A DNA stretch of 64,000 bases from Clostridia bacterium (GTDB taxonomy: Bacteria > Bacillota > Clostridia > Christensenellales > CAG-138), in assembly GCA_017388175.1 (NCBI GenBank), contig JAFOTD010000017.1, forward strand, positions 14,940 to 78,939. Direction: 5' to 3'. Shown one piece after another: positions 3,258-56,688 of this stretch (position 1 is the first letter of the stretch; every line of letters starts with the position of its first letter). A model generated the notes under the pieces. It saw only the letters and a program-made list of their open reading frames with translations, searched no databases and was not told where the DNA came from. The position numbers were made by a program, and so were the translations under genes.

Positions 3258-4247
3258 TTACGATTGAAGATTCTTCTTATACCATTCGATCGCCGCGTCG
3301 ATCCCGCGTTCAAAGCTCCAATCGGGATCATAGCCGAGAAGGTGTTTTGCCTTGCTGATATCAGCGTTGCTGTGTTTGATATCGCCGGCTCGATCCGGTC
3401 CGAAGACAGGCTCAATTTCAACACCGAGCGCCTTGGTCAGCCCATAGTAAATATCTATCAGATACTCCCTTCCGCCATACGCAATGTTAAACACTTCGCC
3501 CGCGGCCTCACGAGGGGCGGCGCATGCCTTGAGATTAGCCTCAATAACATTTTCGATATACGTGAAGTCGCGGCTCTGCCGACCGTCTCCGTTGATCGTC
3601 GGCGCTTCCCCGTGAAGAAGTTGACGAATAAACTTCGGGATAACGGCCGCATACGCGCCGTCTGGATCCTGACGGCGGCCGAAGACGTTAAAGTAACGCA
3701 GGCCGTACGTATCAAGACCGTAGTGTCTCGTATATTGCTTTCCCCATTCTTCGTCACACCTCTTGCTCACGGCATACGGAGAGAGAAGTTCCCCTTCCCT
3801 TCCCTCTTTTTTCGGGAGGTTCGGCTCGTCTCCGTACACGGAGGAACTGGATGCATATACAAACTTCTTCACGCCGTTCCGCCGGGCTGCCTCCATCATA
3901 TTCAGCGTGCCCATGATATTGTTGACGCAGTAAAACAGCGGCATTTCGATAGAGCGCGGTACGCTTCCCCACGCCGCCTGATGGAGGACGTAGTCCGCTC
4001 CGCCGCACGCTTTCAGGCAGGTCTCCAAATCCTTGACGTCGCCTTTGATAAAGCTGAAGTTGGGATCGGCCAAAAACGGCTCTATATTCTCATAATGCCC
4101 TGTAGACAGGTCATCCAGACAACGCACCCTATAGCCGAGATTGAGGATCGCTTCACAAAGATTCGAACCGATAAACCCTGCCCCGCCGGTAACCAGGAAC
4201 AGACTGCCCTTTGGAAAACTGTCATTTGCGTAACCCATTTTCATCAC
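3258..4247 (-). CDS. SDR-family NAD-dependent nucleotide-sugar 4-epimerase (WbpP/TviC-like)
   Basis: LVTGGAGFIGSNL Rossmann motif, the SPYAVSK catalytic YxxxK, and an overall WbpP/TviC-like sequence. Codon 1 in the track is GTG; the ATGs at 4244 or 4238 are alternative starts. Confidence 0.85.
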   Translation of the reverse strand: MMKMGYANDSFPKGSLFLVTGGAGFIGSNLCEAILNLGYRVRCLDDLSTGHYENIEPFLADPNFSFIKGDVKDLETCLKACGGADYVLHQAAWGSVPRSIEMPLFYCVNNIMGTLNMMEAARRNGVKKFVYASSSSVYGDEPNLPKKEGREGELLSPYAVSKRCDEEWGKQYTRHYGLDTYGLRYFNVFGRRQDPDGAYAAVIPKFIRQLLHGEAPTINGDGRQSRDFTYIENVIEANLKACAAPREAAGEVFNIAYGGREYLIDIYYGLTKALGVEIEPVFGPDRAGDIKHSNADISKAKHLLGYDPDWSFERGIDAAIEWYKKNLQS

Positions 4248-37456: not shown

Positions 37457-38890
37457 TCAGTACCCGATCGCGATGCCCAGGATGATGAACAGGATAACGA
37501 GCGCAAGATTGCATATGAACAGCGGCGCGCTCTTTTTGATCCATTTGAAATAGTCGATCCCGATCATCGACAGCGAGATCAGAAGCACCGGCGATGTTGG
37601 AAACAGCACGTTCGTATAACCGTCGGCGAACGTGTAGATCAGAATCAGCATCTGCTTGGAAAGCCCCACGTTGACGACGGCGAGCATGCCCATGACGAGG
37701 ATCGCCTTTGCGGTCGAGGACGAGATAAAGAATTCGAGCACGAGAATGATCGCGTACAGAACGAGCGCGACGACGATCGGGCTGTGCCCCGAAACGAGCG
37801 TATTGATTGAATGCACGATCGTCGGCATGATTGCGCCTTCGTCGAAGATGTACTTGATCGATGACGCGAGCGCGATAAACACGATCGTGGGGAGCGCGCC
37901 GACGACGCCCTTCCAAAAGCTTTTCAGAACGGGCTTGCACGCCCTCGCCGAAAGGAACCCGGCCAAAAGCCCGCAGATCAAAAAGTACGCGATCAGAACG
38001 ACAACCGTGTAATCGCGCAGTGCCTTCAGCGCGGAGCAGACGATGATCAGTCCGAGACAGACGAGCAGGAAAACGATATAGGTCAGACGGATGCGTTTTT
38101 CATCCTGCGGCGCTGTCTCGTTCCGCTTCTCCTCCGCCCCTGCCGCGCGCAGCGTTTCATCGTGTGCAAGCGTAAGGCTTGAAGATGGATCCTTTTTGAG
38201 CCTTCTGACGTACAGAAAGAGAAAACCCAGAAGCAGCAGATACATCACGATGAAGATCACGAAGCGGTACCAGACGCTTTCCATCGGGTTCGCGTCGATG
38301 ATCTCCGCCGCGGTCAGCACCGTGAACGGGTTCGTGATCGCGCTCGCAAAGCCGAAGCCGCACGCGATGATGCTGACGAGAAATCCCGTAAACGAGTCAA
38401 ACCCGATCATTACGCACAGCGCGGCGATGATCGGCAGCATCGAGAGCATCTCCTCGAACAGTCCCAAAAACGCGCCGAAGCACATAAAGACCAGCGCGAT
38501 CGCGCAGAGCAGCAGCGCCTTGCGTCTGCGAAACCGTTCTGCGACGGTGCCGATCAGCGCGCGGATACCGCCGACGTCGTTCATGACCTGAAACGCGCCG
38601 AAGACCATGATGAGAAACAGCGACAGCATGATCAGCGTCAGCCCGCTGTCGGAACCGAAGACAAGGATCGGCGCTAAAAGGCCTTTGTGGATCGGGATTC
38701 CCTTCGCTCCCTCGACCGGGCGGTACGTCAGGTAATCCGGTTTTCCGTCCGCCGTCGTTCCGAACGCGCCCTTCGGGATCACGTAAGTCAGCACGATCGC
38801 GCAGATCATCAGCACGATCAGAAGCGCAACGACCTCGATAAAGGTCTTTGCGGAAAGATTGAGCAGCGTCTTATTCCTGTCCTTTTTCAT
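37457..38890 (-). CDS. YfcC-family (DcuC/C4-dicarboxylate-anaerobic-carrier-like) transporter
   Basis: 477-aa polytopic membrane protein. IPKGAFGTTADGKPDYLTY...KGIPIHKGLLAPILVFGSDSGL...MVFGAFQVMNDVGGI is typical of the YfcC family. Confidence 0.7.
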   Translation of the reverse strand: MKKDRNKTLLNLSAKTFIEVVALLIVLMICAIVLTYVIPKGAFGTTADGKPDYLTYRPVEGAKGIPIHKGLLAPILVFGSDSGLTLIMLSLFLIMVFGAFQVMNDVGGIRALIGTVAERFRRRKALLLCAIALVFMCFGAFLGLFEEMLSMLPIIAALCVMIGFDSFTGFLVSIIACGFGFASAITNPFTVLTAAEIIDANPMESVWYRFVIFIVMYLLLLGFLFLYVRRLKKDPSSSLTLAHDETLRAAGAEEKRNETAPQDEKRIRLTYIVFLLVCLGLIIVCSALKALRDYTVVVLIAYFLICGLLAGFLSARACKPVLKSFWKGVVGALPTIVFIALASSIKYIFDEGAIMPTIVHSINTLVSGHSPIVVALVLYAIILVLEFFISSSTAKAILVMGMLAVVNVGLSKQMLILIYTFADGYTNVLFPTSPVLLISLSMIGIDYFKWIKKSAPLFICNLALVILFIILGIAIGY

Positions 38891-40899: not shown

Positions 40900-41829
40900 A
40901 TGCGGGACGATCTTGACAAACGCATAGCGGAGGCGCGCACGCTGTCCATCGTGGGCATGTGCAAGAACGCAGGCAAAACGACCGTTCTGAACTGGCTTCT
41001 GAACCGGTCGCGCGATCGTGTGCTCGGACTGACCTCGATCGGACGGGACGGCGAATCCGTCGACGTGGTAACCGGCACGGAAAAGCCCGGCATCTTCATT
41101 CCGGAAGGCACGCTGATCGCCACGGCAAAGGACATGCTTTCGCTTTGCGACATCACGCAGGAGATCGTCTGCACCACAGGCATTCCCACGCCTTTGGGCG
41201 AAGTCGTGCTCGTGCGCGCAAAAAGCGCCGGAAACGTGCAGCTTGCGGGGCCTTCGATCACCTCGCAGCTTAAAACCGTTTCCGGGCTGTTCTTCTCGCT
41301 CGGCGCGGATCAGACGATCATCGACGGCGCGCTCGGGCGGAAATCGCTCGGCGCTCGGACCGTTGCCGAAAACGTGATTTTGTGCACCGGCGCAAGCTAC
41401 GACATGCGCATGGAAAAGGTCGTGCAGGACACCGCGAACGTCTTCCGGCTGTTGAATCTCAAAAAGGCCGAAACGCCGCCGGAGGAATCGGAGAAGCCGC
41501 TGAAGGAGCTTTTACGGGAATCCGGCGAGGCGCTGATCCCCGGCGCGTTGACCGACACGGCGATTCTGCCTCTTTTAAAAAGCGGTGCGCTTAGAAACGC
41601 GCGGCTCGTCGTGAAGGATCCGAGCAAGGTTCTGCTCTCGCCCGATACGCTTGAAAAGCTTTCCGTGCGCGGCGTTTCGCTCGAAACGGTTGACGCGGCG
41701 AAAACGCTTTGCGTGACCGTCAATCCCGTTTCCGCCTACGGCTGGAAGTTCGATCCCGACGCGTTTTTGCGCGCGATGGAAGCGGCCGTAACCGTTCCGG
41801 TCATCAACGTAAAGGAGGCGCTCTCTTGA
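40900..41829 (+). CDS. P-loop protein, candidate lysine 5,6-aminomutase reactivase subunit (KamB-like)
   Basis: Walker A GMCKNAGKTT. Positioned immediately upstream of a MutS-like ATPase and the lysine-fermentation operon. The family assignment is from recollection of annotated lysine-fermentation clusters. Confidence 0.5.
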   Translation: MRDDLDKRIAEARTLSIVGMCKNAGKTTVLNWLLNRSRDRVLGLTSIGRDGESVDVVTGTEKPGIFIPEGTLIATAKDMLSLCDITQEIVCTTGIPTPLGEVVLVRAKSAGNVQLAGPSITSQLKTVSGLFFSLGADQTIIDGALGRKSLGARTVAENVILCTGASYDMRMEKVVQDTANVFRLLNLKKAETPPEESEKPLKELLRESGEALIPGALTDTAILPLLKSGALRNARLVVKDPSKVLLSPDTLEKLSVRGVSLETVDAAKTLCVTVNPVSAYGWKFDPDAFLRAMEAAVTVPVINVKEALS

Positions 41830-43301
41830 TTTCGATCCGCTTTGAAGACAGGGTCAGCATCGGGCTGCAATACGTCCTCGATAGTCTGCATGCGTGCAGC
41901 CCGTTCGGGCAGGAACGCGTACGCAGGCTGCGCTTTTACGCGCCGGAGGAACGCGCCGCGCTTCTGACCGAGCTCGGCAACACGGCGCGCGCCGCAAAAG
42001 AAGCGCAGACGCAAAAATCGCTGTACGAAAAAATCATGCTCGTGCTGTGCCAGTTGAAAGATATCCGCGGCTCGCTCTCGCGCCTTTTTGAAGGCGTATG
42101 TCTCGATCACGTGGAGCTGTTCGAGCTGAAAGGCTTTCTGCTCCGCATCGAGGAGCTTTTACCGCTATTCGATCGCATGAACGAAGCCGTGCGGATCGAG
42201 GGCATGGCGTTCTCCGATCCCTCGGAGGCGCTGAAGATACTCGATCCCGAGCATACGCGCTCGCGCGGGTTTTATATTCCGGACGGCGCAAGCGAGCCGC
42301 TTCGCGCGATCCGCAGAGAAAAAAAGCAGCTTGAGCAGCGTCTGTATGAGGCGGAAACCGTCGCCGAAAAGGACGCGCTGAAAGCCGAACGCACGCGCGT
42401 CTGCGCCGAGGAGGAATCCGAAGAACGCGCAATCCGAAAGGCGATGTGCCTTGCGCTGCTTCCGTACGTATCCGCAATGCAGGCTGACGCGGACGCTGCA
42501 GGCAGGCTGGACTTTCTGATCCAGAAAGCACTGTTCGGCGTGCGGTACGGCGGCGTGCTGCCCGAATTGACCGACACGGCGCTGGAGCTGACCGATATGA
42601 TCAATCCGGAGCTATGCGATCTGCTGAAGGAAAAGGGACGCGCGTTCGTGCCCGTTTCGATCGCGGCCGATCGCGGCGCGACGGTGATTACCGGCGCGAA
42701 CATGGGCGGCAAAAGCGTCGCCATGAAGACGGTTGCGCTGAACGCGCTGCTGATGCAGGCGGGTTTTCTCGTCTGCGCAAAGCGGGCGCGGCTTCCGATG
42801 TTTCATTGTGTGAAACTGCTGTTCGACGATCTGCAGTCGATGCAGTCCGGACTTTCCGGCTTCGGTTCGGAAATCGTGCGGTTCAGCGAAGCGCTCGATG
42901 AAGCGGAACAGGGTTATTCGCTGCTGCTGATCGACGAGCTTGCGCGCGGCACGAATCCCGACGAGGGCGCGCGGATCGTGCAGGCGGTGACGCGATATCT
43001 GAACGGCGCAAACGCGATCTCGATCCTTGCGACGCACTACGACGGCGTCGCGGAGCTGGCGCGCGCACATTATCAGATCATCGGGCTTAAAGACGTCGAT
43101 CCCGACGCGATCAAAGCGGAGCTTTCCGGCGCGGAACGGGACGGCGTGGCGGTGATCGCGCGGCATATGAACTACGGGCTGTACCGCGTCGAGGGCAGGG
43201 CGGACTGTCCGAAGGACGCGCTGAATATTCTTCGTATGCTGTCGCTGAAACCGGAGATTTTAGAACGCATCGAACGCTCGTACGATACGGAAAAATCTTG
43301 A
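41826..43301 (+). CDS. MutS domain-V-type ATPase, candidate lysine 5,6-aminomutase reactivase ATPase (KamC-like)
   Basis: VITGANMGGKSVAMKTVALNALLMQAGF (Walker A), LLLIDELARGTNPDEG (Walker B), ILATHY. No mismatch-binding N-terminal domain. The TTG start at 41826 follows AAGGAGG by 8 nt and overlaps the upstream stop. Confidence 0.6.
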   Translation: MISIRFEDRVSIGLQYVLDSLHACSPFGQERVRRLRFYAPEERAALLTELGNTARAAKEAQTQKSLYEKIMLVLCQLKDIRGSLSRLFEGVCLDHVELFELKGFLLRIEELLPLFDRMNEAVRIEGMAFSDPSEALKILDPEHTRSRGFYIPDGASEPLRAIRREKKQLEQRLYEAETVAEKDALKAERTRVCAEEESEERAIRKAMCLALLPYVSAMQADADAAGRLDFLIQKALFGVRYGGVLPELTDTALELTDMINPELCDLLKEKGRAFVPVSIAADRGATVITGANMGGKSVAMKTVALNALLMQAGFLVCAKRARLPMFHCVKLLFDDLQSMQSGLSGFGSEIVRFSEALDEAEQGYSLLLIDELARGTNPDEGARIVQAVTRYLNGANAISILATHYDGVAELARAHYQIIGLKDVDPDAIKAELSGAERDGVAVIARHMNYGLYRVEGRADCPKDALNILRMLSLKPEILERIERSYDTEKS

Positions 43302-43327
43302 CAACGACCGCATGAATCGGGTATAAT
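43298..43327 (+). promoter_or_regulatory. consensus sigma-A promoter of the lysine-fermentation operon
   Basis: TTGACA (43298-43303)-N18-TATAAT (43322-43327). The -35 overlaps the stop codon of the MutS-like gene. Confidence 0.7.
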
Positions 43328-43352
43328 TTTTATACAGATTTTATACTGTCTT

Positions 43353-43520
43353 CCATAGAGGTGCGTCGAGCAGGGTACCCGTTCGACCGGCAGGGCAGCC
43401 GGGAACGTCGTGCGGGGAAGGGGCCGTTCGCCGAAGAATCCGGGGCTGCCCGATCCGGTTTCTGGCATCGCCGTGTAAGCGGCGCTGCTGTCATGTTCGA
43501 AGAACATGGAGCGCTATTGG
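43353..43520 (+). ncRNA. lysine riboswitch (L-box) aptamer
   Basis: CCATAGAGGTGCG...GGGGCCGTTCGCCGAAG...TTTCTGGCATCGCCGTG...GCTGCTGTCA-TGTTCgaaGAACA-TGGAGCGCTATTGG. It matches the conserved L-box blocks AGAGGUGCG, CGCCGAAG, CUGG, CUGUCA and GGAG(A)GCUAU, with P1 formed by CCATAG / CTATTGG. Confidence 0.9.
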
Positions 43521-43550
43521 TCGAACCGTCGACCGACAGCGCCTTTTTTT
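43512..43550 (+). terminator. riboswitch expression platform: intrinsic terminator whose 5' arm overlaps the aptamer P1 3' strand
   Basis: GCGCTATTGGTCGA-accg-TCGACCGACAGCGC (13 pairs, one A.C mismatch) followed by CTTTTTTT. Confidence 0.75.
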
Positions 43551-43612
43551 ACCCGAAAAACGCGTTTGAAGGTTCTTATCCGTCAGCAAATTAATGTGAA
43601 GGAGAATCATAC

Positions 43613-44020
43613 ATGGAAAAAATGACATCTTTACTCCGTCTCCGCATGAGCGCCAAAGACGCGCATTACGGCGGAAACCTCGTAGACGGCGCGCACATGG
43701 TACACCTGTTCGGCGACGTAGCGACCGAGCTTCTAATCAAGTGCGACGGCGACGAAGGCCTGTTCTGCGCCTACGACAACATCGAGTTTTTAGCGCCGGT
43801 CTACGCGGGCGACTACATCGAAGCCTACGGCGAGATCGACCGCGTCGGCAACACCTCCCGCGGCATGACGTTCGAAGCGCGCAAGGTCATTCAGGCGCGT
43901 CCGGACATCTCCCCGTCCGCGGCGGAAGTTCTGCCTGAGCCGATCGTGGTCTGCCGCGCACACGGCACCTGCGTCACGCCGAAGGACTGCCAGCGTATCG
44001 ATCACAGTCAGGACAAGTAA
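43613..44020 (+). CDS. kal: 3-aminobutyryl-CoA ammonia-lyase
   Basis: 135-aa hotdog-fold-sized protein: [64 protein letters not shown]. Position and size match Kal of lysine-fermentation clusters. Confidence 0.8.
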
Positions 44021-44032
44021 CGGAGGAAACAA

Positions 44033-44860
44033 ATGGAAAAGCTCATCATCACCGCCGCCATCTGCGGTGCGGAAGTCACCAAGGCGAACAACCCCGCCGT
44101 CCCCTACACCGTCGAGGAAATGGTCCGCGAAGCAAAGCTTGCGTATGAAGCGGGCGCAGCGATCATCCACGTGCACGTCCGCGAGGACGACGGCACCCCC
44201 ACGCAGGACCGCGAGCGCTTCCGCGTCGTCATGGACGCGATCCGCAAAGAGCTGCCCGACGTCATCATGATCCCGTCCACCGGCGGCGCGACCGGCATGA
44301 CGCCCGAAGAGCGTCTGCAGCCTACCGAGCTGTTTCCCGAGATGGCGACGCTCGACTGCGGCACCTGCAATTTCGGCGACGACGTGTTCGAAAACACGAT
44401 GCCCACGATGCGCGCGTTCGGAAAGCGCATGATCGAGAACAATATCAAGCCCGAGTACGAATGCTTCGAGCTCGGTCATCTCGACACCGTTCTGAACATG
44501 GCGAAGAAGGGCGAAGTCCCCGGCGCTCCGATGCAGTTCAACTTCGTGCTCGGCGTTGCAGGCTGCGCGCCCGCAACCGTCGATAACCTCGCCTTCATGG
44601 TTTCGAAGATCCCCGCGGGTTCGACCTGGACCGTCACCGGCGTCGGCCGCTCCGCATGGACGATGGCGGCTGCCGGCATCATTATGGGCGGCAACGTCCG
44701 CGTCGGCTTCGAGGACAACGTCTATCTCGGCAAGGGTCACAAGGCCGCGTCAAACGGCGAGCTTGTCGAAAAGGTCGTCCGTCTTGCAAAGGAACTCGGC
44801 AGAGAGATCGCAACGCCCGACGAAGCGCGCGCGATCCTCGGCATGAAGCCCCGTCAGTAA
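44033..44860 (+). CDS. kce: 3-keto-5-aminohexanoate cleavage enzyme (BKACE family)
   Basis: KLIITAAICGAEVTKANNPAVPYTVEEMVREAKLAYEAGAAIIHVHVREDDGTPTQD... is the canonical BKACE/DUF849 N-terminus. 275 aa. Confidence 0.9.
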   Translation: MEKLIITAAICGAEVTKANNPAVPYTVEEMVREAKLAYEAGAAIIHVHVREDDGTPTQDRERFRVVMDAIRKELPDVIMIPSTGGATGMTPEERLQPTELFPEMATLDCGTCNFGDDVFENTMPTMRAFGKRMIENNIKPEYECFELGHLDTVLNMAKKGEVPGAPMQFNFVLGVAGCAPATVDNLAFMVSKIPAGSTWTVTGVGRSAWTMAAAGIIMGGNVRVGFEDNVYLGKGHKAASNGELVEKVVRLAKELGREIATPDEARAILGMKPRQ

Positions 44861-44902: not shown

Positions 44903-45955
44903 ATGGAACAGTTAAAGGGCAATAAATACGGTACCCACCGCGTCATCGAGCCGAAGGGCGTTCTCACGCAGGCTGCATGGAAGATCGACAATGACATGAC
45001 CAAGCGTTACAGCAACGAGATCATCTGCGATGTCATCTCCCTGAACATCGACTCCGCGTCCTTCACGCAGATCGAAGAAGCATGCGGCGGCGACGAGCAG
45101 AAGATCGGCGAAATGATCCTCGGCATCGTGGCGGAACGCGGCAAGCAGCAGAACCCGGTTACGGGCTCCGGCGGCATGTTCATCGGCAAGGTTGCCTACA
45201 TCGGCGAAGACCTTCTGAAGAAGCCGGACTTCGACCTCAAGGTCGGCGACAAGATCGCATCCCTCGTTTCCCTGTCCATGACGCCTCTGAAGATCGACCG
45301 CATCAAGGCGATCCACAAGGACATCGACCGCGTCGATATCGACGGTCAGGCGGTTCTGTTTGAGTCCGCGATCTACGCAAAGCTTCCCGAGGACATGTCC
45401 GAAGCTCTGGCGCTTGCGGCACTCGACGTTGCAGGTGCGCCCGCACAGGCAAGAAAGCTTCCGAAGGAAGGCGATTCCGTGCTGATCCTCGGCGCAAACG
45501 GCAAGAGCGGCGTTCTCTGCGGCTGGGAAGCGCTGAAAAAGGTCGGCCCGAACGGCAAGGTCGTCGGCGTCGTCAGAAACCCGAAGCAGGTTCCCGCGTT
45601 GATCGAACTCGGCGTTTACACCGACGTCATCGTTGCGGACTGCACGAAGCCGGTCGAAGTACTTGAAAAGGCGCTGGAAGCCAACGGCGGCAAGGAATAC
45701 GACATCTCCATCTGCTGCGTCAACATCGAATCCTGCGAGATGAGCGCGATCCTCCCGGTCCGCGACGACGGTCTCGTATACTTCTTCTCCATGGCGACCT
45801 CGTTCACCAAGGCAGCTCTGGGCGCAGAGGGCGTCGGCAAGGACGTCACCATGATCGTCGGCAACGGCTATACCAAGAACCATGCCGAGATCACGCTGAA
45901 CGTGCTCCGCGAGAACGAAAAGCTCCGCAAGCTGTTTGACGAAAAATACTGCTAA
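44903..45955 (+). CDS. kdd: L-erythro-3,5-diaminohexanoate dehydrogenase
   Basis: 350 aa. GTHRVIEPKGVLTQAAWKIDN...NPVTGSGGMFIGKV...VLILGANGKSGVL (Rossmann fold). Cluster context between kce and kamA. Confidence 0.8.
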   Translation: MEQLKGNKYGTHRVIEPKGVLTQAAWKIDNDMTKRYSNEIICDVISLNIDSASFTQIEEACGGDEQKIGEMILGIVAERGKQQNPVTGSGGMFIGKVAYIGEDLLKKPDFDLKVGDKIASLVSLSMTPLKIDRIKAIHKDIDRVDIDGQAVLFESAIYAKLPEDMSEALALAALDVAGAPAQARKLPKEGDSVLILGANGKSGVLCGWEALKKVGPNGKVVGVVRNPKQVPALIELGVYTDVIVADCTKPVEVLEKALEANGGKEYDISICCVNIESCEMSAILPVRDDGLVYFFSMATSFTKAALGAEGVGKDVTMIVGNGYTKNHAEITLNVLRENEKLRKLFDEKYC

Positions 45956-46020
45956 AATTCTCTTGCGAGAGCAGGGTTCTCCCCCGCTCTCGCGATCTAT
46001 TTTTTTCAGGAGGTTTGTAT

Positions 46021-47271
46021 ATGAAAACCCGAAACGGTCTCTTCCGGGACGTCCCCGAAGAGCAGTGGAACGACTGGCACTGGCAGGTAAGAAACCGCGC
46101 CGAAACGCTTGACGATCTCAAAAAGGTCATGACGCTGACGCCCGACGAAGAAGAAGGCGTGAAGAAGACGCTCGGCAAGCTCCGCATGGCGATCACGCCG
46201 TACTATCTCTCGCTGATCGACCTCGACGATCCCTATGATCCGATCCGCAAGATGGCGATCCCGCGCGCGGAAGAGCTCGATTACGCGGATTATGAGGACG
46301 CAGACCCGCTGCACGAGGACACCGATTCCCCGACGCCGGGTCTTACCCACCGGTATCCGGACCGCGTGCTGCTTCTCATCACGGACATGTGCTCCATGTA
46401 CTGCCGCCACTGCACGCGCCGCCGCTTTGCCGGTCAGAATGACTGCGGCGTTCCGATGGCACAGATCGACAAGTGCATCGAATATGTAGCCAATCACCCC
46501 GAGGTCCGCGACGTGCTTCTTTCCGGCGGCGACGCGCTGATGGTCGGCGACGCGGTACTTGAGAGCATTATCTCGCGTCTTCGCGCGATCCCGCACGTTG
46601 AGATCATTCGTCTCGGCTCCCGCACGCCGGTCGTGTGCCCGCAGCGCATCACGCCGGAGCTGTGCAATATGCTGAAGAAATACCATCCCATCTGGCTCAA
46701 CACGCACTTCAATACGCCGAAGGAATTCACGCCCGAAGCGGCAAAGGCTTGCGCCATGCTCGCGGACGCGGGCATTCCGCTGGGCAACCAGAGCGTTCTG
46801 CTCGCGGGGATCAACGACTGCAGCCACGTCATGATGGAACTCGTGCACGGGCTTGTCAAGATGCGTGTGCGCCCCTACTACATCTACGCCTGCGATCCGT
46901 CCCTTGGTCTTTCGCACTTCCGCACCCCGGTATCGAAGGGCATTGAGATCATGGAAGCGCTGCGCGGTCACACCTCCGGCTACTGCGTACCGACGTTCGT
47001 CGTCGACGCGCCGGGCGGCGGCGGCAAGACGCCCGTCATGCCGAACTACCTGATCTCGCAGACGCCGAGAAAGGTCATCCTCAGAAACTTTGAGGGCGTC
47101 ATCACGTCCTACACCGAGCCCGAACATTACGTGCAGAACTGCCATTGCGACGTGTGCACCGGCAAGAAAAAGGTCGAAAAGACCGGCGTTGCGTACGTTG
47201 CCGAGGGCACTGCGCAGCACTATCTTGAACCGACGAAGCTCCTTCGCAACGAGCGGCACGTCAAGCACTGA
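46021..47271 (+). CDS. kamA: L-lysine 2,3-aminomutase (radical SAM, PLP)
   Basis: FRDVPEEQWNDWHWQVRNR, the radical-SAM motif CSMYCRHCTRR, and VRDVLLSGGDALM. ATG 46021 follows CAGGAGG by 7 nt (the track start at 46015 is TTG) and gives 416 aa. Confidence 0.95.
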   Translation: MKTRNGLFRDVPEEQWNDWHWQVRNRAETLDDLKKVMTLTPDEEEGVKKTLGKLRMAITPYYLSLIDLDDPYDPIRKMAIPRAEELDYADYEDADPLHEDTDSPTPGLTHRYPDRVLLLITDMCSMYCRHCTRRRFAGQNDCGVPMAQIDKCIEYVANHPEVRDVLLSGGDALMVGDAVLESIISRLRAIPHVEIIRLGSRTPVVCPQRITPELCNMLKKYHPIWLNTHFNTPKEFTPEAAKACAMLADAGIPLGNQSVLLAGINDCSHVMMELVHGLVKMRVRPYYIYACDPSLGLSHFRTPVSKGIEIMEALRGHTSGYCVPTFVVDAPGGGGKTPVMPNYLISQTPRKVILRNFEGVITSYTEPEHYVQNCHCDVCTGKKKVEKTGVAYVAEGTAQHYLEPTKLLRNERHVKH

Positions 47272-47280
47272 GGGCGGCTT

Positions 47281-48843
47281 ATGGAAAGCAAACTCGGCTT
47301 GAACTTTGATCTGGTCAACGAGGCGCGTACGAGCGCGGCGCACGTCGCTGCCGACGTACAGCGCTTTATCGACCGGCACACCACCGTCACGGTTGAGCGC
47401 ACCGTCTGCCGACTCTTGGGCATCGACGGCGTCAACGACATGGACGTTCCCATGCCGAACGTCGTCGTCGATTACCTCTCCGCAAACGCGCTGCTGCCGA
47501 TGGGCGCGGCGTGGGTGATCGGCAACGCGATCCTCGAGACCGGTCTCGATCCGCAGGGCATTGCGGAAGCGATCGATAAGGGCGAGCTCGACCTCAACAA
47601 GCTCCCCGCCCATCCGGAGGCGGAGATCCGGAACGCGCTGCAGCCGTACGTCGATGCGACGATGGCGCGGATCAACAAAAACGTCGCAAATCGCAACGAG
47701 TATCTTGACCGCTTCGGCGACAAGCAGGGACCATACCTCTACATCATCGTCGCGACCGGCAACATCTACGAGGACATCATTCAGGCGAAGGCCGGCGCGA
47801 AGCAAGGCGCGGACATCATCGCCGTCATTCGTACGACGGGCCAGTCGCTTTTAGACTACGTTCCCTACGGCGCGACGACCGAGGGCTTCGGCGGCACCTA
47901 TGCAACGCAGGAAAACTTCCGCCTGATGCGCGCCGCGCTTGACGAGGTCGGCGAGGAGCAGCACCGCTATATCCGCCTTTGCAACTACTGCTCGGGCCTG
48001 TGCATGCCCGAGATCGCGGCGATGGGCGCGTTGGAACGGCTCGACGTCATGCTGAATGACGCGCTGTACGGCATTCTGTTCCGCGACATCAACATGCAGC
48101 GCACGATCGTCGATCAGTATTTTTCCCGCATCATCAACGGGTACGCGGGCGTCATCATCAACACCGGCGAGGACAACTACCTCACCACCGACGACGCGAT
48201 CACGAGCGCGCACACGGTGCTTGCTTCGCAGTTTTTGAACGAGGCGTTCGCAAAGTGCGCCGGCATGCGCGAGGAGCAGATGGGCCTCGGCCACGCGTTC
48301 GAGATGGACCCGGCGGTCGAAAACACGTTCCTCTACGAGCTTGCGCAGGCGCAGATGGCGCGCGAAATCTTCCCGAACGCGCCGCTGAAGTACATGCCGC
48401 CGACCAAGTATATGACCGGCAACATCTTCCGCGGACACATTCAGGACGCGCTGTTCAACATGGTCACGATCCTGACGAATCAAAAACTGCACCTCCTCGG
48501 CATGATGACCGAGGCGATCCACACGCCGTTTATGTCGGACCGCGCGCTGTCGATCGAGAACGCGCAGTACATCTTCCGCACGATGAAGGATCTCGGCAAC
48601 GAACTGACCTTCAAGGAGGGCGGCATCATCCGCGCCCGCGCAAACGAGGTCCTGACGAAGGCGACCGAGCTCTTGAAAGAGATCGAAAACCTCGGGCTTT
48701 TCACGACGCTTGAGCGCGGTATCTTCGCGGACGTCAAGCGCCCGAAGGACGGCGGCAAGGGTCTTGCAGGCGTCGTCGTCAAGGATGAAACCTACTTCAA
48801 TCCGTTTATCGAGATCATGAAAGGCAAGGTGGCGAACGAATGA
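47281..48843 (+). CDS. kamD: beta-/D-lysine 5,6-aminomutase alpha subunit
   Basis: 520 aa with a TIM-barrel-type KamD sequence (LNFDLVNEARTSAAHVAADVQRFIDRHTT...); followed by the overlapping B12-binding subunit. Confidence 0.85.
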   Translation: MESKLGLNFDLVNEARTSAAHVAADVQRFIDRHTTVTVERTVCRLLGIDGVNDMDVPMPNVVVDYLSANALLPMGAAWVIGNAILETGLDPQGIAEAIDKGELDLNKLPAHPEAEIRNALQPYVDATMARINKNVANRNEYLDRFGDKQGPYLYIIVATGNIYEDIIQAKAGAKQGADIIAVIRTTGQSLLDYVPYGATTEGFGGTYATQENFRLMRAALDEVGEEQHRYIRLCNYCSGLCMPEIAAMGALERLDVMLNDALYGILFRDINMQRTIVDQYFSRIINGYAGVIINTGEDNYLTTDDAITSAHTVLASQFLNEAFAKCAGMREEQMGLGHAFEMDPAVENTFLYELAQAQMAREIFPNAPLKYMPPTKYMTGNIFRGHIQDALFNMVTILTNQKLHLLGMMTEAIHTPFMSDRALSIENAQYIFRTMKDLGNELTFKEGGIIRARANEVLTKATELLKEIENLGLFTTLERGIFADVKRPKDGGKGLAGVVVKDETYFNPFIEIMKGKVANE

Positions 48844-49628
48844 GCAGCGGACTTTATAACACGCATAAAATTGAATTCGACACCACGCTGGACCTTACGC
48901 GCATAAAGCCGTACGGCGACACGATGAACGACGGCAAGGTGCAGCTGAGCTTTACCCTGCCCGTGAAAGACGACGAGCGCGGCGTGGAAGCGGCGCGGCA
49001 GATCGCAAAGAAGATGGGCCTCGACGAGCCGAACGTGACGTATCACGCCCCGCTCGACAAGGAGTTCACGTTTTACGTGGTCTACGGAAGCTGCGTGCAC
49101 ACCGTAAACTACGAGGACATTCACGTCATCACCGTCGAATCCGAGGTGATGAGCATGGAGGAAACGAACGACTATATCCGCGAGCACATCGGCCGCAAGG
49201 TCGTGATGGTGGGCGCTTCTACCGGTACCGACGCGCACACCGTTGGCATCGACGCGATCATGAACCGCAAGGGCTTTGCAGGACACTACGGCGTGGAGCG
49301 CTACGAGATGATCGAGGCGTACAACCTCGGCTCGCAGGTCAGCAACGAGGATTTCATCAAAAAGGCTTTGGAGGTCAACGCGGACGCGCTGCTCGTATCG
49401 CAGACGGTTACGCAGAAGGATATCCATATCCAGAACCTCACGAACCTCATCGAGCTGCTGGAGGCCGAAGGGCTTCGCGACCGCTTCGTGGTGGTCTGCG
49501 GCGGGCCGCGCATCACGCATGAGCTTGCGAAGGAGCTCGGCTTCGACGCGGGCTTCGGCGCGGGCACGTACGGCGACGACGTGGCGAGCTTCGTGGTCAC
49601 GGAAATGGTCAAACGCGGCATGAAGTGA
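48840..49628 (+). CDS. kamE: beta-/D-lysine 5,6-aminomutase beta subunit (cobalamin/PLP-binding)
   Basis: VVMVGASTGTDAHTVGIDAI (B12-binding DxHxxG-type region), 262 aa, ATGA overlap with kamD. Confidence 0.85.
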   Translation: MSSGLYNTHKIEFDTTLDLTRIKPYGDTMNDGKVQLSFTLPVKDDERGVEAARQIAKKMGLDEPNVTYHAPLDKEFTFYVVYGSCVHTVNYEDIHVITVESEVMSMEETNDYIREHIGRKVVMVGASTGTDAHTVGIDAIMNRKGFAGHYGVERYEMIEAYNLGSQVSNEDFIKKALEVNADALLVSQTVTQKDIHIQNLTNLIELLEAEGLRDRFVVVCGGPRITHELAKELGFDAGFGAGTYGDDVASFVVTEMVKRGMK

Positions 49629-49673
49629 TCTGCCGCTTCCATGAACTATCAATTCTTGAAGGAGGAATATAAA

Positions 49674-50366
49674 ATGGCAAAGAAACCGGTCATCACTGCC
49701 GCCGAGGCAGCGAAAATGATTCCCGACGGCGCAACGATCATGTGCGGCGGCTTTTTGGGCTGCGGACAGGCGCTCGCCGTCGTTAAGGAGCTCGTGAAGC
49801 TCGGCACCAAGGATCTGACGCTGATCGCAAACGATATGGGCCGCGCGGTCGGTCCGAAGGGCGAAGAATTCTTCGGCATTGCGGAGCTGATCCACAACCA
49901 TCAGGTCAAGCGCGTGATCGCGACGCACGTCGGCATGACACCCGAGGTCGGCGAACAGATGAACGCCGGCACCCTCGAGGTCAACCTGATTCCGCAGGGC
50001 TCGATGGCGGAATGCGTCCGCGCGGGCGGCGCGGGACTGGGCGGCGTGCTCACCCCCGTCGGCGTCGACACCCTGATCGAGGAAAGCCCGCTTTGCCTCG
50101 GCAAGCAGGAGATCGACGGCAGACAGTATCTTCTGATGAAGCCGATCCACGCGGACTTCGCGCTGCTCGGCACCTATAAGTGCGACGAAGCCGGCAACTG
50201 CTGGTACAAGGGCACGATGCGTAACTTCAACACCGTCATGGCGACCGCGGCGGATACCGTCATTGCCGAGACCGAATACCTCGTTCCCATCGGCGAGATC
50301 GAGCCCGAGAACATCCACACCTACGGCATGTGCGTCGACTACATCGTGGAAGGAGAGAGAAAATAA
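49674..50366 (+). CDS. atoD: 3-oxoacid (butyryl-CoA:acetoacetate) CoA-transferase subunit A
   Basis: KPVITAAEAAKMIPDGATIMCGGFLGCGQ...; ATG 49674 follows GAAGGAGG. Confidence 0.9.
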   Translation: MAKKPVITAAEAAKMIPDGATIMCGGFLGCGQALAVVKELVKLGTKDLTLIANDMGRAVGPKGEEFFGIAELIHNHQVKRVIATHVGMTPEVGEQMNAGTLEVNLIPQGSMAECVRAGGAGLGGVLTPVGVDTLIEESPLCLGKQEIDGRQYLLMKPIHADFALLGTYKCDEAGNCWYKGTMRNFNTVMATAADTVIAETEYLVPIGEIEPENIHTYGMCVDYIVEGERK

Positions 50367-51034
50367 TGGATAAGTCTGAAATCAAAGCCTTTATCGCAAA
50401 GCGCTGCGCGAAAGAACTGAAGGACGGCGACGTCGTCAACCTCGGCATCGGCCTTCCCACCATGATCCCCGGCTTCCTTCCCGAAGGCGTTGACCTCGTC
50501 ATCCATGCCGAACTCGGCATCGTCGGCGCGGGCGCGACCCCGAAAGAGGGCGACGCGAACTACGATCCGTACCACGTCGTCGACGCGGGCGGCAACGTCG
50601 CGTCCGTGGCGTTCGGCGGCGGCTTCATCGACTCCGCGACGAACTTCGGTCTGATCCGCGGCGGTCACGTCGACGCGTGCTTCCTCGGCGCTTTGGAAGT
50701 CGATCAGGAAGGCAACCTCGCAAACTGGATCATCCCCGGCAAGCGTATGCCCGGCATGGGCGGCGCGATGGACCTGTGCGTCGGCGCAAAGAACTGCATC
50801 GTCTGCATGGAGCACACTGCAAAGGGCAATCCGAAGATCCTCGAAAAGTGCCGTCTGCCGCTGACCGCGTCCCACTGCGTCAAGAAGATCATCACCGAGA
50901 TGTGCGTGCTCGAAGTGACCGAAAACGGTCTTTTGATGACCGAGATCAACCCGGAATTTACCGTCGACCAGGTCAAGGCTGCCACCGCCGCCCCGATCAC
51001 GGTCGCGGAGAATCTGAAGTCCATGATCGACTGA
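50366..51034 (+). CDS. atoA: 3-oxoacid CoA-transferase subunit B
   Basis: IAKRCAKELKDGDVVNLGIGLPT...GMGGAMDL...; the start overlaps the atoD stop (TAATG). Confidence 0.9.
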   Translation: MDKSEIKAFIAKRCAKELKDGDVVNLGIGLPTMIPGFLPEGVDLVIHAELGIVGAGATPKEGDANYDPYHVVDAGGNVASVAFGGGFIDSATNFGLIRGGHVDACFLGALEVDQEGNLANWIIPGKRMPGMGGAMDLCVGAKNCIVCMEHTAKGNPKILEKCRLPLTASHCVKKIITEMCVLEVTENGLLMTEINPEFTVDQVKAATAAPITVAENLKSMID

Positions 51035-51077
51035 TCAAACGATACAGCAAAGCCCGACCGTTTGGCCGGGCTTTTTA
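50844..51077 (+). repeat. direct repeat copy A (atoA 3' end + terminator)
   Basis: Homologous to 52072-52305. Hand alignment of the coding part shows about 20 mismatches in about 186 nt, mostly at third-codon positions. Confidence 0.85.
51048..51077 (+). terminator. intrinsic terminator after atoA
   Basis: AAAGCCCGACC-gttt-GGCCGGGCTTTTTAT. Confidence 0.7.
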
Positions 51078-53101: not shown

Positions 53102-54004
53102 TCATTTCTTTTCGATCGGCAGCCAGATTTCGCACCAGTGCGAATTGTTGACCGCTTCGTTTCCGTCCTCGAACGGCCAGTGAATCACGTTGATCTCCGG
53201 CGCATTCCGCAGCTCGTAGCCGGACGACGGCAGCCATTCCGTCACAAGGCGCTTCCGAAGCCCGTCGACCAAATTGGTCGGAAACTTGCACCGTTCCGTT
53301 TCGCAAACTACATACAGCCCTTCCGGAATGGAGAGATGCTCATATCGCTTCGCAAATTCGCCGAGGTCCTCGTCAAAGTCCTCGAGCGCCCAGTGGGGCA
53401 GCTTTGCCGCAAAATAGAAATCATAGCCCTCGTCGTCAAAGTTCGTCAGCACGGCATACGTGGTCTCATGCTCCCGGCTCATGCCCTCCAACACGTATTG
53501 CTCCAGCCGCGTCTCGCAGGCAAAATAATGATCCTGATCCTGTTTCTCGTTTGGATCGCCGGTAAAGCGGCGTTTGAATCCGGTCAGCAGCATGTCCGGT
53601 TTCGTTTCGATTCTGTAATCCATCATGCTTCCTCCTTCAAAATGCAGATTGATCGTCATGGGAGAAAACGACCTGAGTTTTGCCCCGTCCATGCGCGCCC
53701 GGGACGGCGTTACCCCGTGGAATCTCTGGAATGCTCTTGCGAAGCTGTCCGGGCTTTCGTAGCCGTACTTGTATGCGACGTCGATGACCCTCGCCTTACC
53801 CTCCGCAAGCTCTGCGCCTGCAGCGGATAACCGCCGGTTCCGGATGTACTCGCCGAGCGTGTAGCCGCACAGAATGCTGAATGCGCGCTGAAAATGAAAC
53901 GAGGAATAATGGCTTTCCCCAGCAATGTTTTCTGTGTCCAGATCATCGGTCAGATGCGCTTCGATATAATCAATTGCCTTCTGTATTGCTTCGATCCATT
54001 CCAT
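53102..54004 (-). CDS. AraC-family transcriptional regulator with GyrI-like effector-binding domain
   Basis: N-terminal HTH (AIDYIEAHLTDDL...HYSSFHFQRAFSILCGYTLGEYIRNRRL...ESPDSFARAFQRFHGVTPS) and a C-terminal GyrI/Cass2-like half. Confidence 0.8.
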   Translation of the reverse strand: MEWIEAIQKAIDYIEAHLTDDLDTENIAGESHYSSFHFQRAFSILCGYTLGEYIRNRRLSAAGAELAEGKARVIDVAYKYGYESPDSFARAFQRFHGVTPSRARMDGAKLRSFSPMTINLHFEGGSMMDYRIETKPDMLLTGFKRRFTGDPNEKQDQDHYFACETRLEQYVLEGMSREHETTYAVLTNFDDEGYDFYFAAKLPHWALEDFDEDLGEFAKRYEHLSIPEGLYVVCETERCKFPTNLVDGLRKRLVTEWLPSSGYELRNAPEINVIHWPFEDGNEAVNNSHWCEIWLPIEKK

Positions 54005-54750: not shown

Positions 54751-55869
54751 TTATTTCGCCGCTTTGGCAGCGCGGATGGATTCGATCAGCTCCGGAACGA
54801 CCTTGAAGAGGTCGCCCACAATGCCGTAGTCCGCACATTCGAAGATCGGGGCGGTCTCGTTCTTGTTGACCGCAATGATGCATTCGGATTCCTGCATGCC
54901 CGCCTTGTGCTGGATCGCGCCGGAGATGCCGAGCGCGACGTACACCTTCGGATGCACGGTCTTGCCGGTCTGTCCGACCTGATGGTCCGCGCCGATCCAG
55001 CCCGCGTCCACGCAGGCACGGGAAGCGCCGACCACGCCGCCGAGCTCGGAAGCAAGCTCTTCGGCAAGCGCAAGACCCTTTTCGACGTCCTTACTGATGC
55101 CGCGGCCGACGGAGACGATGAAGTCCGCGCCGATCAGATCGACGAGCTTCTTCGCCGCCTTGACGACCTCGACCACTTCGGTCTTGATGTCTTCCGGCTT
55201 CAGATCGAATTCGGGATGGAGAATCTGGGCGGTTCTCGGATTCTCGCGCTTCTTCATAACGCCCGGACGGACCGTCGCCATCGCGGGGCGGAAGCGCGGG
55301 CAGATGATCGACGCCATGAGGTGACCGCCGAATGCCGGACGGGTCATCTTGAGATCGCGCGCGACGGAGTGATCCGCGCCCGCGAGCCGTACGCTCTTGG
55401 TGCGCTCGATGCGATCCTCGGGAAGTGTGGAAGCTTCACGCAGGAAGTTCTGGTAGTTTTCGAGATCGATATCGAGGTGCGTGCAGTCCGCGCAAAGACC
55501 GGTGTGCAGACGAGCTGCGCAGCGCGGCGCGAGGTCTCTGCCGATCGTCGATGCGCCGAACAGGAGGATTTCGGGCTTATACGCCTCAACCGCATCGACG
55601 ATGACCTTGGTGTACGCGTCGGTGGTGAACGTGCCGAGAAGCGGGCTGTTATAGACATAGACCTTGTCCGCGCCGTATTTGCCGAGTTCCGGCGCGATGC
55701 CGTCGACATTGTCGCCGAGCAGAATGCCGCAAAGCTCCACGCCGAGCTCGTCGGCAAGCTTTCTGCCCTCGGAGATAAGTTCGAAGGTGGTCGGCATCAT
55801 TTCGCCGTTGCGCTGTTCACAGAAGACCCAAACGTTCTTGAAGGCTTCGATTTCGCTGCTGTTAAACAT
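54751..55869 (-). CDS. etfA: electron transfer flavoprotein alpha subunit
   Basis: C-terminal FAD domain ...GASRACVDAGWIGADHQVGQTGKTVHPKVYVALGISGAIQHKAGM. Confidence 0.9.
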   Translation of the reverse strand: MFNSSEIEAFKNVWVFCEQRNGEMMPTTFELISEGRKLADELGVELCGILLGDNVDGIAPELGKYGADKVYVYNSPLLGTFTTDAYTKVIVDAVEAYKPEILLFGASTIGRDLAPRCAARLHTGLCADCTHLDIDLENYQNFLREASTLPEDRIERTKSVRLAGADHSVARDLKMTRPAFGGHLMASIICPRFRPAMATVRPGVMKKRENPRTAQILHPEFDLKPEDIKTEVVEVVKAAKKLVDLIGADFIVSVGRGISKDVEKGLALAEELASELGGVVGASRACVDAGWIGADHQVGQTGKTVHPKVYVALGISGAIQHKAGMQESECIIAVNKNETAPIFECADYGIVGDLFKVVPELIESIRAAKAAK

Positions 55870-55887
55870 GATTCCGTTCCCCCTTCC

Positions 55888-56688
55888 TCAAATAATGTGC
55901 TTCGCGGCTAAGATCCCCGCGAGCTTGTCGGTCGTTTCCTTGCCGTCGCCTTCGAGCATCATGCCCGCGCCCTTTTGCGGCGGCGTGAACGACGTCAGAA
56001 TGTTCGTCGGCGAGCCCAGAAGACCGATCGTGGACTTGTCGATCAGCGGATGATCCTTCAGCGTTTCGTAGGTCATCGTGATCACTTCTTTCTGATAGCA
56101 GTCGAAGATGCCGCCGATGTTCATATAACGCGGCTGATTCAATTCCTTGATGCAGGTGATCATGCAGGGCGTCTGCACCTTCACCGTCATGTAGCCGTCC
56201 TCAAGGATACGCTTGACGGTCAGGGTGTTGCCGTCTTTTTTGATCTCGCCTGCGTAGGTGACCTGCGGCAGATGCAGCTTTTCCGCGATCTGCGGACCGA
56301 CCTGCGCGGTGTCGCCGTCGATCGCCTGACGTCCCGCAAGGATGATATCCTCGGGTTCCACGCCGTAGGTGTCGATCGCCGCCGCGATAATCTGGCTCGT
56401 GGCGTAGGTATCGGAGCCGCCGAACTCGCGCGCGGTGATGAGAACGCCCTCGTCCACGCCCATTGCCATGAGCTCGCGGAGCATGCCTTCCGCGGGCGGC
56501 GGTCCCATCGTGAACGCAACGACCTTGCAGCCGAGCTCATCCTTTAAGGTCAGCGCCGCTTCGACCGCGTTCATGTCGTCGGGGTTGATGATCGTCTGCA
56601 TGGACGCACGGTCCAGCGTGCCGTCCGGGTTGACGGCGACCGTACCGGAGGTATCGGGAACCTGCTTTACCGTAACAAAAATCTTCAT
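55888..56688 (-). CDS. etfB: electron transfer flavoprotein beta subunit
   Basis: MKIFVTVKQVPDTSGTVAVNPDGTLDRASMQTIINPDDMNAVEAAL. Confidence 0.9.
   Translation of the reverse strand: MKIFVTVKQVPDTSGTVAVNPDGTLDRASMQTIINPDDMNAVEAALTLKDELGCKVVAFTMGPPPAEGMLRELMAMGVDEGVLITAREFGGSDTYATSQIIAAAIDTYGVEPEDIILAGRQAIDGDTAQVGPQIAEKLHLPQVTYAGEIKKDGNTLTVKRILEDGYMTVKVQTPCMITCIKELNQPRYMNIGGIFDCYQKEVITMTYETLKDHPLIDKSTIGLLGSPTNILTSFTPPQKGAGMMLEGDGKETTDKLAGILAAKHII

Follow-up and report, generated by a model that had tools for sequence, protein, structure and literature searches.

We analyzed a 64,000-nucleotide (nt) stretch of DNA from a Clostridia bacterium (assembly GCA_017388175.1, contig JAFOTD010000017.1, positions 14,940 to 78,939 of the forward strand; the whole stretch is called the window) and found, directly upstream of the kal gene, a leader that we read as a transcriptional riboswitch that is activated by lysine (an ON switch) and controls an eight-gene lysine-fermentation operon. 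We put the probability of this reading at about 0.85. The leader combines a promoter, a lysine aptamer of the L-box type and an intrinsic terminator that shares one strand with aptamer helix P1, while the binding of lysine, the kinetic sequence of steps and the induction that would follow are what we infer from this arrangement. In coordinates of the window, the leader consists of the following parts.

43298-43327, + strand: sigma-70-type promoter, with the -35 hexamer TTGACA at 43298-43303, an 18-nt spacer and the -10 hexamer TATAAT at 43322-43327
43348-43524, + strand: lysine riboswitch aptamer (L-box, RF00168), a five-helix junction (P1-P5), from the Rfam match
43353-43358, + strand: 5' strand of P1, CCAUAG, from the structure line of the Rfam alignment
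43393-43399, + strand: loop L2, GGGCAGC, complementary to L3 in a kissing-loop tertiary contact
43445-43451, + strand: loop L3, GCUGCCC, the partner of L2
43511-43550, + strand: intrinsic terminator, with the 5' arm at 43511-43524, the loop ACCG at 43525-43528, the 3' arm at 43529-43542, C43543 and a run of seven U (U7) at 43544-43550
43514-43520, + strand: 3' strand of P1, CUAUUGG, the shared segment, identical to positions 4-10 of the terminator 5' arm
43599-43604, + strand: ribosome-binding site AAGGAG, seen in the sequence itself and placed 8 nt upstream of the kal start codon ATG (43613)

The aptamer was the only Rfam match in the whole window. It scored 78.6 bits (E 7e-19) with RF00168 (Lysine), whose gathering score is 30, i.e. 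48 bits over the threshold, and the match ran from position 1 to 182 of the 182-position model without truncation. The core motifs AGAGGUGC, GCCGAAG, CUGG, CUGUCA and UGGAGCGCUA were all present, and every upper-case Rfam consensus position of the junction core (AGAGG-GC, GCCGAAG, CUGG, CUGUCA and GGAG-GCUA) was matched. These core consensus positions were invariant over 24 homologous leaders (alignment A2, see below). Loops L2 and L3 were perfectly complementary across 7 nt. In the relatives, the cores of the two loops differed in sequence and remained complementary (CAGGC/GCCUG, CAGAC/GUCUG, GGAUCC/GGAUCC and CGGAAA/UUUCCG), as judged by per-sequence duplex searches that are informal and indicative, with energies inflated by the neighboring stems; these searches replaced a column-based count on the MAFFT alignment, which was unusable with the loops out of register. 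That the L2-L3 complementarity is kept with different sequences argues for functional aptamers and, on sequence grounds, the element is a genuine L-box aptamer.

It is conceivable that the aptamer has drifted to a related compound (e.g. beta-lysine or 3,5-diaminohexanoate), which would then induce the operon instead of L-lysine. Riboswitch families include specificity variants, the clade considered here controls catabolic and not biosynthetic genes, and strongly reduced aptamers occur in some relatives (L018, L026 and L036). The aptamer of the window is however full-sized, with a conserved Rfam core that is intact here and does not vary across A2, and the first encoded pathway enzyme, KamA, acts on L-lysine, which is hence the logical inducer. 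We consider a change of ligand very improbable.

The promoter hexamers agreed with the consensus at 12 of 12 positions, and a pattern scan found no second site of this kind in 42800-44000. Judging from the position of the promoter, transcription would start at about 43334-43336. Most homologous leaders had a TTGACA/TATAAT promoter at a similar distance 5' of the aptamer. The aptamer is placed downstream of the promoter in the 5' leader of lysine-metabolism genes, and its end is 88 nt from kal. A first-pass annotation, made from the letters of this DNA, had proposed both the consensus promoter TTGACA-N18-TATAAT and the L-box aptamer, and both were confirmed by these scans.

The two arms of the terminator, GCGCUAUUGGUCGA (5') and UCGACCGACAGCGC (3'), form standard pairs at 13 of the 14 stem positions. 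The hairpin alone had a folding energy of -21.3 kcal/mol (z -4.7), a stability that 0 of 200 shuffled sequences equaled, and it was included in the minimum-energy fold of the entire leader. The hairpin, its ACCG loop and the U7 run were thus present as annotated earlier, but the stem is not a perfect inverted repeat since it contains one A43516·C43537 mismatch. A pattern-based terminator scan reported no terminator in the region; that scanner disallows an internal mismatch and overlooked the hairpin because of the A·C mismatch, so that its result is not evidence of absence.

In the Rfam consensus, P1 is formed by CCAUAG (43353-58) and CUAUUGG (43514-20), with U43518 either bulged or in a C·U mismatch. 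The junction nucleotides GCG (43511-13) make up positions 1-3 of the terminator 5' arm. Since the 3' strand of P1 (43514-20) lies wholly within the terminator 5' arm (43511-24), P1 and the terminator are mutually exclusive, and there is no sequence between the two to serve as a separate antiterminator. With P1 held, the leftover 3' sequence folded to only about -2 kcal/mol and did not form a terminator. The mutual exclusion and the lack of a separate antiterminator had both been claimed in the first-pass annotation and hold as claimed. Its pairing of GGAGCGCTATTGG with CCATAGAGG was correct in that P1 and the terminator share a strand, but it reached too far, as AGG and GGAGCG are junction nucleotides and not P1 pairs.

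We propose that transcription would start ~7 nt past the -10 box and that the aptamer would fold while being made, the emerging 3' strand of P1 being able to pair with CCAUAG. L-lysine in the five-way junction would lock P1 together with the adjacent junction nucleotides 43511-13, and 10 of the 14 nt of the terminator 5' arm would then be out of reach by the time the 3' arm (43529-42) is made ~10-30 nt later. No terminator would form in this lysine-bound state, and RNA polymerase would continue into kal. Without lysine, the weak P1 (a duplex of ~-4 kcal/mol) would be displaced by the hairpin (~-21 kcal/mol), and transcription would stop in the U7 tract at 43544-50.

The operon that would be switched in this way comprises eight genes and a hairpin at its end (CoA, coenzyme A; bit scores are given with the model cut-offs).

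43613-44020, + strand: kal, 3-aminobutyryl-CoA ammonia lyase, the first gene of the operon (NF052388 equivalog, 193.9 bits, cut-off 160)
44033-44860, + strand: kce, 3-keto-5-aminohexanoate cleavage enzyme (NF052387, 423.2 bits, cut-off 382)
44903-45955, + strand: kdd, L-erythro-3,5-diaminohexanoate dehydrogenase (NF052381, 262.5 bits, cut-off 200)
46015-47271, + strand: kamA, lysine 2,3-aminomutase (TIGR03820, 598.8 bits, cut-off 525.4)
47281-48843, + strand: kamD, lysine 5,6-aminomutase alpha subunit (NF052384, 912.9 bits, cut-off 600)
48840-49628, + strand: kamE, lysine 5,6-aminomutase beta subunit (NF052385, 410.5 bits, cut-off 280)
49641-50366, + strand: atoD-like CoA-transferase subunit A (TIGR02429 subfamily, 182.3 bits, cut-off 128.5)
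50330-51034, + strand: atoA-like CoA-transferase subunit B (TIGR02428, 272.6 bits, cut-off 243.55)
51052-51076, + strand: terminator-like hairpin at the operon end, GCCCGACC-GUUU-GGCCGGGC followed by U5, read from the sequence

The names that these genes had been given at first pass were all supported by NCBIfam models. Kal, Kce, Kdd, KamA, KamD and KamE scored over the equivalog cut-offs, while the two CoA-transferase subunits passed only subfamily models; the atoD-like product scored 224.5 with the acetate CoA-transferase equivalog PRK09920, under its cut-off of 315. The match to the atoA-like product begins at residue 20, and the gene itself probably starts downstream of the listed GTG. The operon-end hairpin starts 18 nt past the atoA stop. 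Because of this hairpin at 51052-76, and because the genuine genes that come next are encoded on the other strand, the unit ends after atoA. The transcription unit is made up of the promoter, the riboswitch, the eight genes (kal-kce-kdd-kamA-kamD-kamE-atoD-atoA) and the terminator.

We compared the leader with those of 80 kal loci (L001-L080), which a scan of one genome per species with the highly conserved Kal had returned. A Lysine aptamer was found directly upstream of kal in 24 of the 80 loci, in 23 by Rfam scans and in the last, L020 (Intestinimonas aquisgranensis), by a focused scan that gave 61.6 bits at 3681-3857. The multi-locus Rfam scan at the gathering threshold had missed L020, and negatives from large batched scans were not relied on alone. 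A search by nhmmer --max with a hidden Markov model of alignment A2 returned the same 24 loci and no others. A strict regular expression for L-box motifs recovered only 14 of the 24 and was replaced by the Rfam scans and nhmmer. All 24 were Clostridia-type loci with kal first in kal-kce-kdd-kamA-kamD, mostly with kamC (lysine 5,6-aminomutase reactivase ATPase) just upstream. Among the 80 loci, no L-box was found where kal follows atoDA (Bacteroidales) or diverges from kdd/kamA (Anaerovoracaceae, Eubacteriaceae-like), and lysine fermentation must therefore be regulated differently in those lineages. The presence of a catabolic lysine operon behind the L-box, together with the restriction of the L-box to loci where kal comes first, supports the ON logic.

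The overlap between P1 and the terminator was seen in 24 of 24 leaders. In per-sequence folds of every riboswitch-bearing leader, the hairpin before the U-run began in the 3' strand of P1, despite differing distal stems and loops. The identity of Kal across the species that keep the promoter-aptamer-terminator module was only 80-94%, the nearest relatives being L001 (a metagenome-assembled genome (MAG) of an uncultured Clostridia) and L002 (a Christensenellales MAG), both with 94% Kal identity. Covariation was counted on A2, a MAFFT alignment of the 24 leaders, separately for P1 and the terminator as the two share columns. The terminator was 91.6% paired with 8 pairs changed on both sides, its score was reached by 0 of 500 shuffles and slid controls gave 30-57%, so that terminator covariation was over both controls. 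P1 (7 columns) was 92.9% paired with 2 compensatory pairs and slid controls of 18-62%; 7 of 500 shuffles reached its percentage of paired positions and 100 of 500 its covariation score, and the covariation of P1 by itself is modest. We also found changes that touch both helices at once. In L019 and L022, the U that follows CUAU in the shared strand is replaced by C, and its partners in P1 and in the terminator are both changed from A to G. L047 has a G in the shared strand whose partner is U in P1 and C in the terminator. Taken from aligned sequences, these patterns indicate that both alternative pairings have been maintained in evolution.

Several points weigh against a lysine-ON switch. Because the leaders are related by descent, the covariation looks more significant against shuffles than it is, and firmer arguments come from the slid controls and from how much the distal stems differ. 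The aptamer of the window has four non-standard P2 pairs flagged in the Rfam alignment, its score is among the lowest of the close clade (78.6 versus up to 100 bits), and its P1 has a bulge or mismatch, with C43354 where most relatives carry A. No experimental lysine binding or lysine-dependent read-through was found in the searchable literature for any natural lysine-ON riboswitch. Finally, secondary-structure energies alone prefer the terminator by ~11 kcal/mol. The folding energies of P1 and the terminator and the compensatory changes in homologous leaders had both been put forward at first pass as ways to examine the switch; the energies were computed as nearest-neighbor values that include neither ligand nor tertiary terms. 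For the leader at ~43335-43550, the terminator state had -94.2 kcal/mol and the best P1-enforced fold -83.0 kcal/mol, and in the full leader the ensemble probabilities were 0.57-1.0 for the terminator pairs and ~0 for P1. With the terminator favored to this extent, the switch would require ligand binding, tertiary contacts and co-transcriptional kinetics to make up the difference. Such compensation is usual for ON riboswitches. When the nascent RNA was folded up to 43528, i.e. without the 3' arm, the optimum was -80.3 kcal/mol and the P1-enforced fold -78.3 kcal/mol, within 2 kcal/mol of each other, and the optimum already held the CCA/UGG pairs of P1. The calculated energy pattern fits a kinetically controlled ON switch.

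The same imperfections of P1 and P2, along with the A·C mismatch in the terminator, could be read as signs of a decaying or non-functional riboswitch, with a protein regulator or read-through from kamC as the main control of the operon; many lysine fermenters, Bacteroidales and Anaerovoracaceae included, manage without an L-box near kal. We find decay very improbable given the wide margin over the Rfam threshold, the perfect L2-L3 complementarity and the conservation of the whole module at 80-94% Kal identity, with compensatory changes that maintain both helices.

The gene upstream of the promoter bears on a further alternative.

41709-43301, + strand: kamC, lysine 5,6-aminomutase reactivase ATPase, the upstream neighbor (NF052383, 487.7 bits, cut-off 300)

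The match to kamC starts at residue 51 of the open reading frame (ORF), and its true start is probably near 41859. The kamC stop codon (43299-43301) falls within the -35 hexamer, and there is no terminator between kamC and the riboswitch. Since kamC does not have a terminator of its own, transcripts coming from kamC would meet the same switch and are probably ended or gated by its terminator too, as far as the layout of the sequence indicates. One could then regard the hairpin as the constitutive terminator of kamC, in which case the aptamer would act on kal in another way (translation or mRNA decay) or would repress like the classical L-boxes. The position of the kamC stop and the thermodynamic dominance of the hairpin agree with such a role, and a local fold has a weak hairpin near the ribosome-binding site. 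It is difficult to reconcile, however, with the perfect promoter between kamC and the aptamer, which is conserved in homologs, or with a 5' arm that coincides with the 3' strand of P1 in 25 of 25 leaders and covaries, which is unexpected for a chance gene-end terminator. In addition, L011, L019, L022 and L047 have the riboswitch but no kamC match in the upstream DNA examined. An OFF switch would require a separate antiterminator, for which there is no room. Translational control through a sequence complementary to the ribosome-binding site was considered and rejected, because none of the motifs CUCCU, UCCUU and CCUCC occurs in the leader and the aptamer has no such motif linked to it. A constitutive kamC terminator is accordingly a highly unlikely explanation, and we retain the reading of the hairpin as the lysine-controlled terminator of the kal operon.

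The other neighbors of the operon lie on the opposite strand.

53102-54004 and 54751-56688, - strand: AraC-family/GyrI-like regulator and electron-transfer flavoprotein (ETF) alpha/beta subunits, downstream; ETF is relevant to butyryl-CoA metabolism
37457-38890, - strand: DcuC-type anaerobic carrier, upstream

The region is GC-rich, and many of its long + strand ORFs, which lack a Pfam match, are probably spurious.

The leaders of the relatives vary in ways that deserve description. We noted that the A·C mismatch in the terminator is common to the window, L001, L002 and L014, and that P1 is weakened in the window and L002 by a C at its fifth position, where most homologs have A; the joint weakening of P1 and the terminator may represent tuning of the switching threshold. 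Three loci have 'mini' lysine aptamers of 137-147 nt upstream of kal (L018:3771-3916, L026:3785-3931 and L036:3768-3904), which are without the distal parts of P2 and P3 (both kissing-loop partners), score 58-70 bits with RF00168 and retain the P1/terminator overlap. Four others have a second hairpin after the riboswitch terminator (L020:3838-3965, L047:496-640, L019:3795-3925 and L022:3477-3610). The 5' arm of this second hairpin mimics the 3' strand of P1 (G[GA][UA]GCGCU[AG]U[UC]), and the hairpins of L020 and L047 come with a U-run of their own. The 3' arm of the first terminator can pair with the 5' arm of the second hairpin, with -16.9 kcal/mol in L020 and -6 to -9 kcal/mol in the others. 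On these computed pairings, the tandem terminators may work as a relay, with the 3' arm of terminator 1, once freed, serving as the antiterminator of terminator 2; against such a relay, minimum-energy folds with the P1 strand blocked retain hairpin 2. The window has the simple single-terminator form, with no second hairpin element. In one clade (L004-L014), TGTCA(C) repeats, e.g. tgtcttttttgtcacaatgtcac, were found 20-45 nt upstream of the -35 box (~3650-3680 in L004). Going by their sequence and position, these repeats could be a protein-binding site and a second layer of control. The window does not have them, and the coding sequence of kamC fills that position.

Gut and rumen Clostridia ferment lysine to butyrate and acetate, and a lysine-ON RNA, if true, would tell when butyrate is made from protein. 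The element is a further, well supported example of a design predicted in 2003 for this type of operon, and not a discovery; it leaves current understanding unchanged and would not surprise a specialist. The first-pass annotation had noted that activating L-boxes before lysine-catabolic operons were predicted by comparative genomics, and such predictions do exist. Barrick & Breaker (2007; PMC2258182) cite Rodionov 2003 for certain lysine riboswitches of the ON type, in which parts of the terminator stem are buried, and Mukherjee et al. (2017; PMC5584792) list lysine riboswitches upstream of kal/kce among the positive regulators, in C. sticklandii, F. nucleatum and Thermoanaerobacter. The element described here resembles the predicted lysine-ON LYS elements of Thermoanaerobacter tengcongensis, Fusobacterium nucleatum and Clostridium sticklandii (Rodionov et al. 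2003, as cited in PMC2258182, and PMC5584792) in aptamer family, in the kal/kce type of operon and in the proposed logic by which a ligand-stabilized pairing buries part of the terminator stem. It differs from them in its host, an uncultured, higher-GC Clostridia/Christensenellales-like lineage, and in its setting, with the riboswitch directly before kal, the full kal-to-atoA set behind it and kamC immediately upstream. In Thermoanaerobacter, by contrast, the first gene is described as a pspF-type regulator gene. From sequence comparison, the 25-leader set might be the first in which natural transcriptional lysine-ON riboswitches are supported for a whole family and by covariation, including unreported tandem-terminator and mini-aptamer variants, but we think such priority improbable.

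The classical OFF lysine riboswitches (B. subtilis lysC and E. coli lysC) have the same fold and core (RF00168), and lysine is expected to stabilize P1 in them as well. In the element described here, in contrast, the 3' strand of P1 is itself the 5' arm of the terminator, and the logic is therefore inverted relative to the classical OFF L-boxes. The transcriptional ON riboswitches for adenine (B. subtilis pbuE/ydhL) and glycine (gcvT), in which P1 and the terminator overlap directly, use the same platform, a ligand-bound pairing that sequesters an arm of the terminator (PMC2258182), and the genes they control likewise remove or consume excess ligand. They differ in aptamer class and ligand, and the present aptamer is much larger, with 177 nt and five helices, so that folding must finish before a short decision window of ~10-30 nt. 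A 177-nt aptamer that commits within a few tens of nucleotides would be a demanding test case for co-transcriptional decision-making. The engineered lysine-ON riboswitches (Zhou & Zeng 2015; the Lys-A variants of PMC10974012) are likewise activated in a lysine-dependent manner through an L-box aptamer. The 2024 engineering paper (PMC10974012) treats the natural lysine riboswitch as repressing, and lysine-ON engineering has so far depended on artificially selected variants (PMC10974012). The compact promoter-aptamer-terminator module and its 24 natural variants are candidate parts for lysine biosensors and dynamic pathway control. Whereas the engineered switches were selected from OFF switches and act in Corynebacterium, the element upstream of kal appears to be a natural design that would reach lysine-dependent activation through transcription termination.

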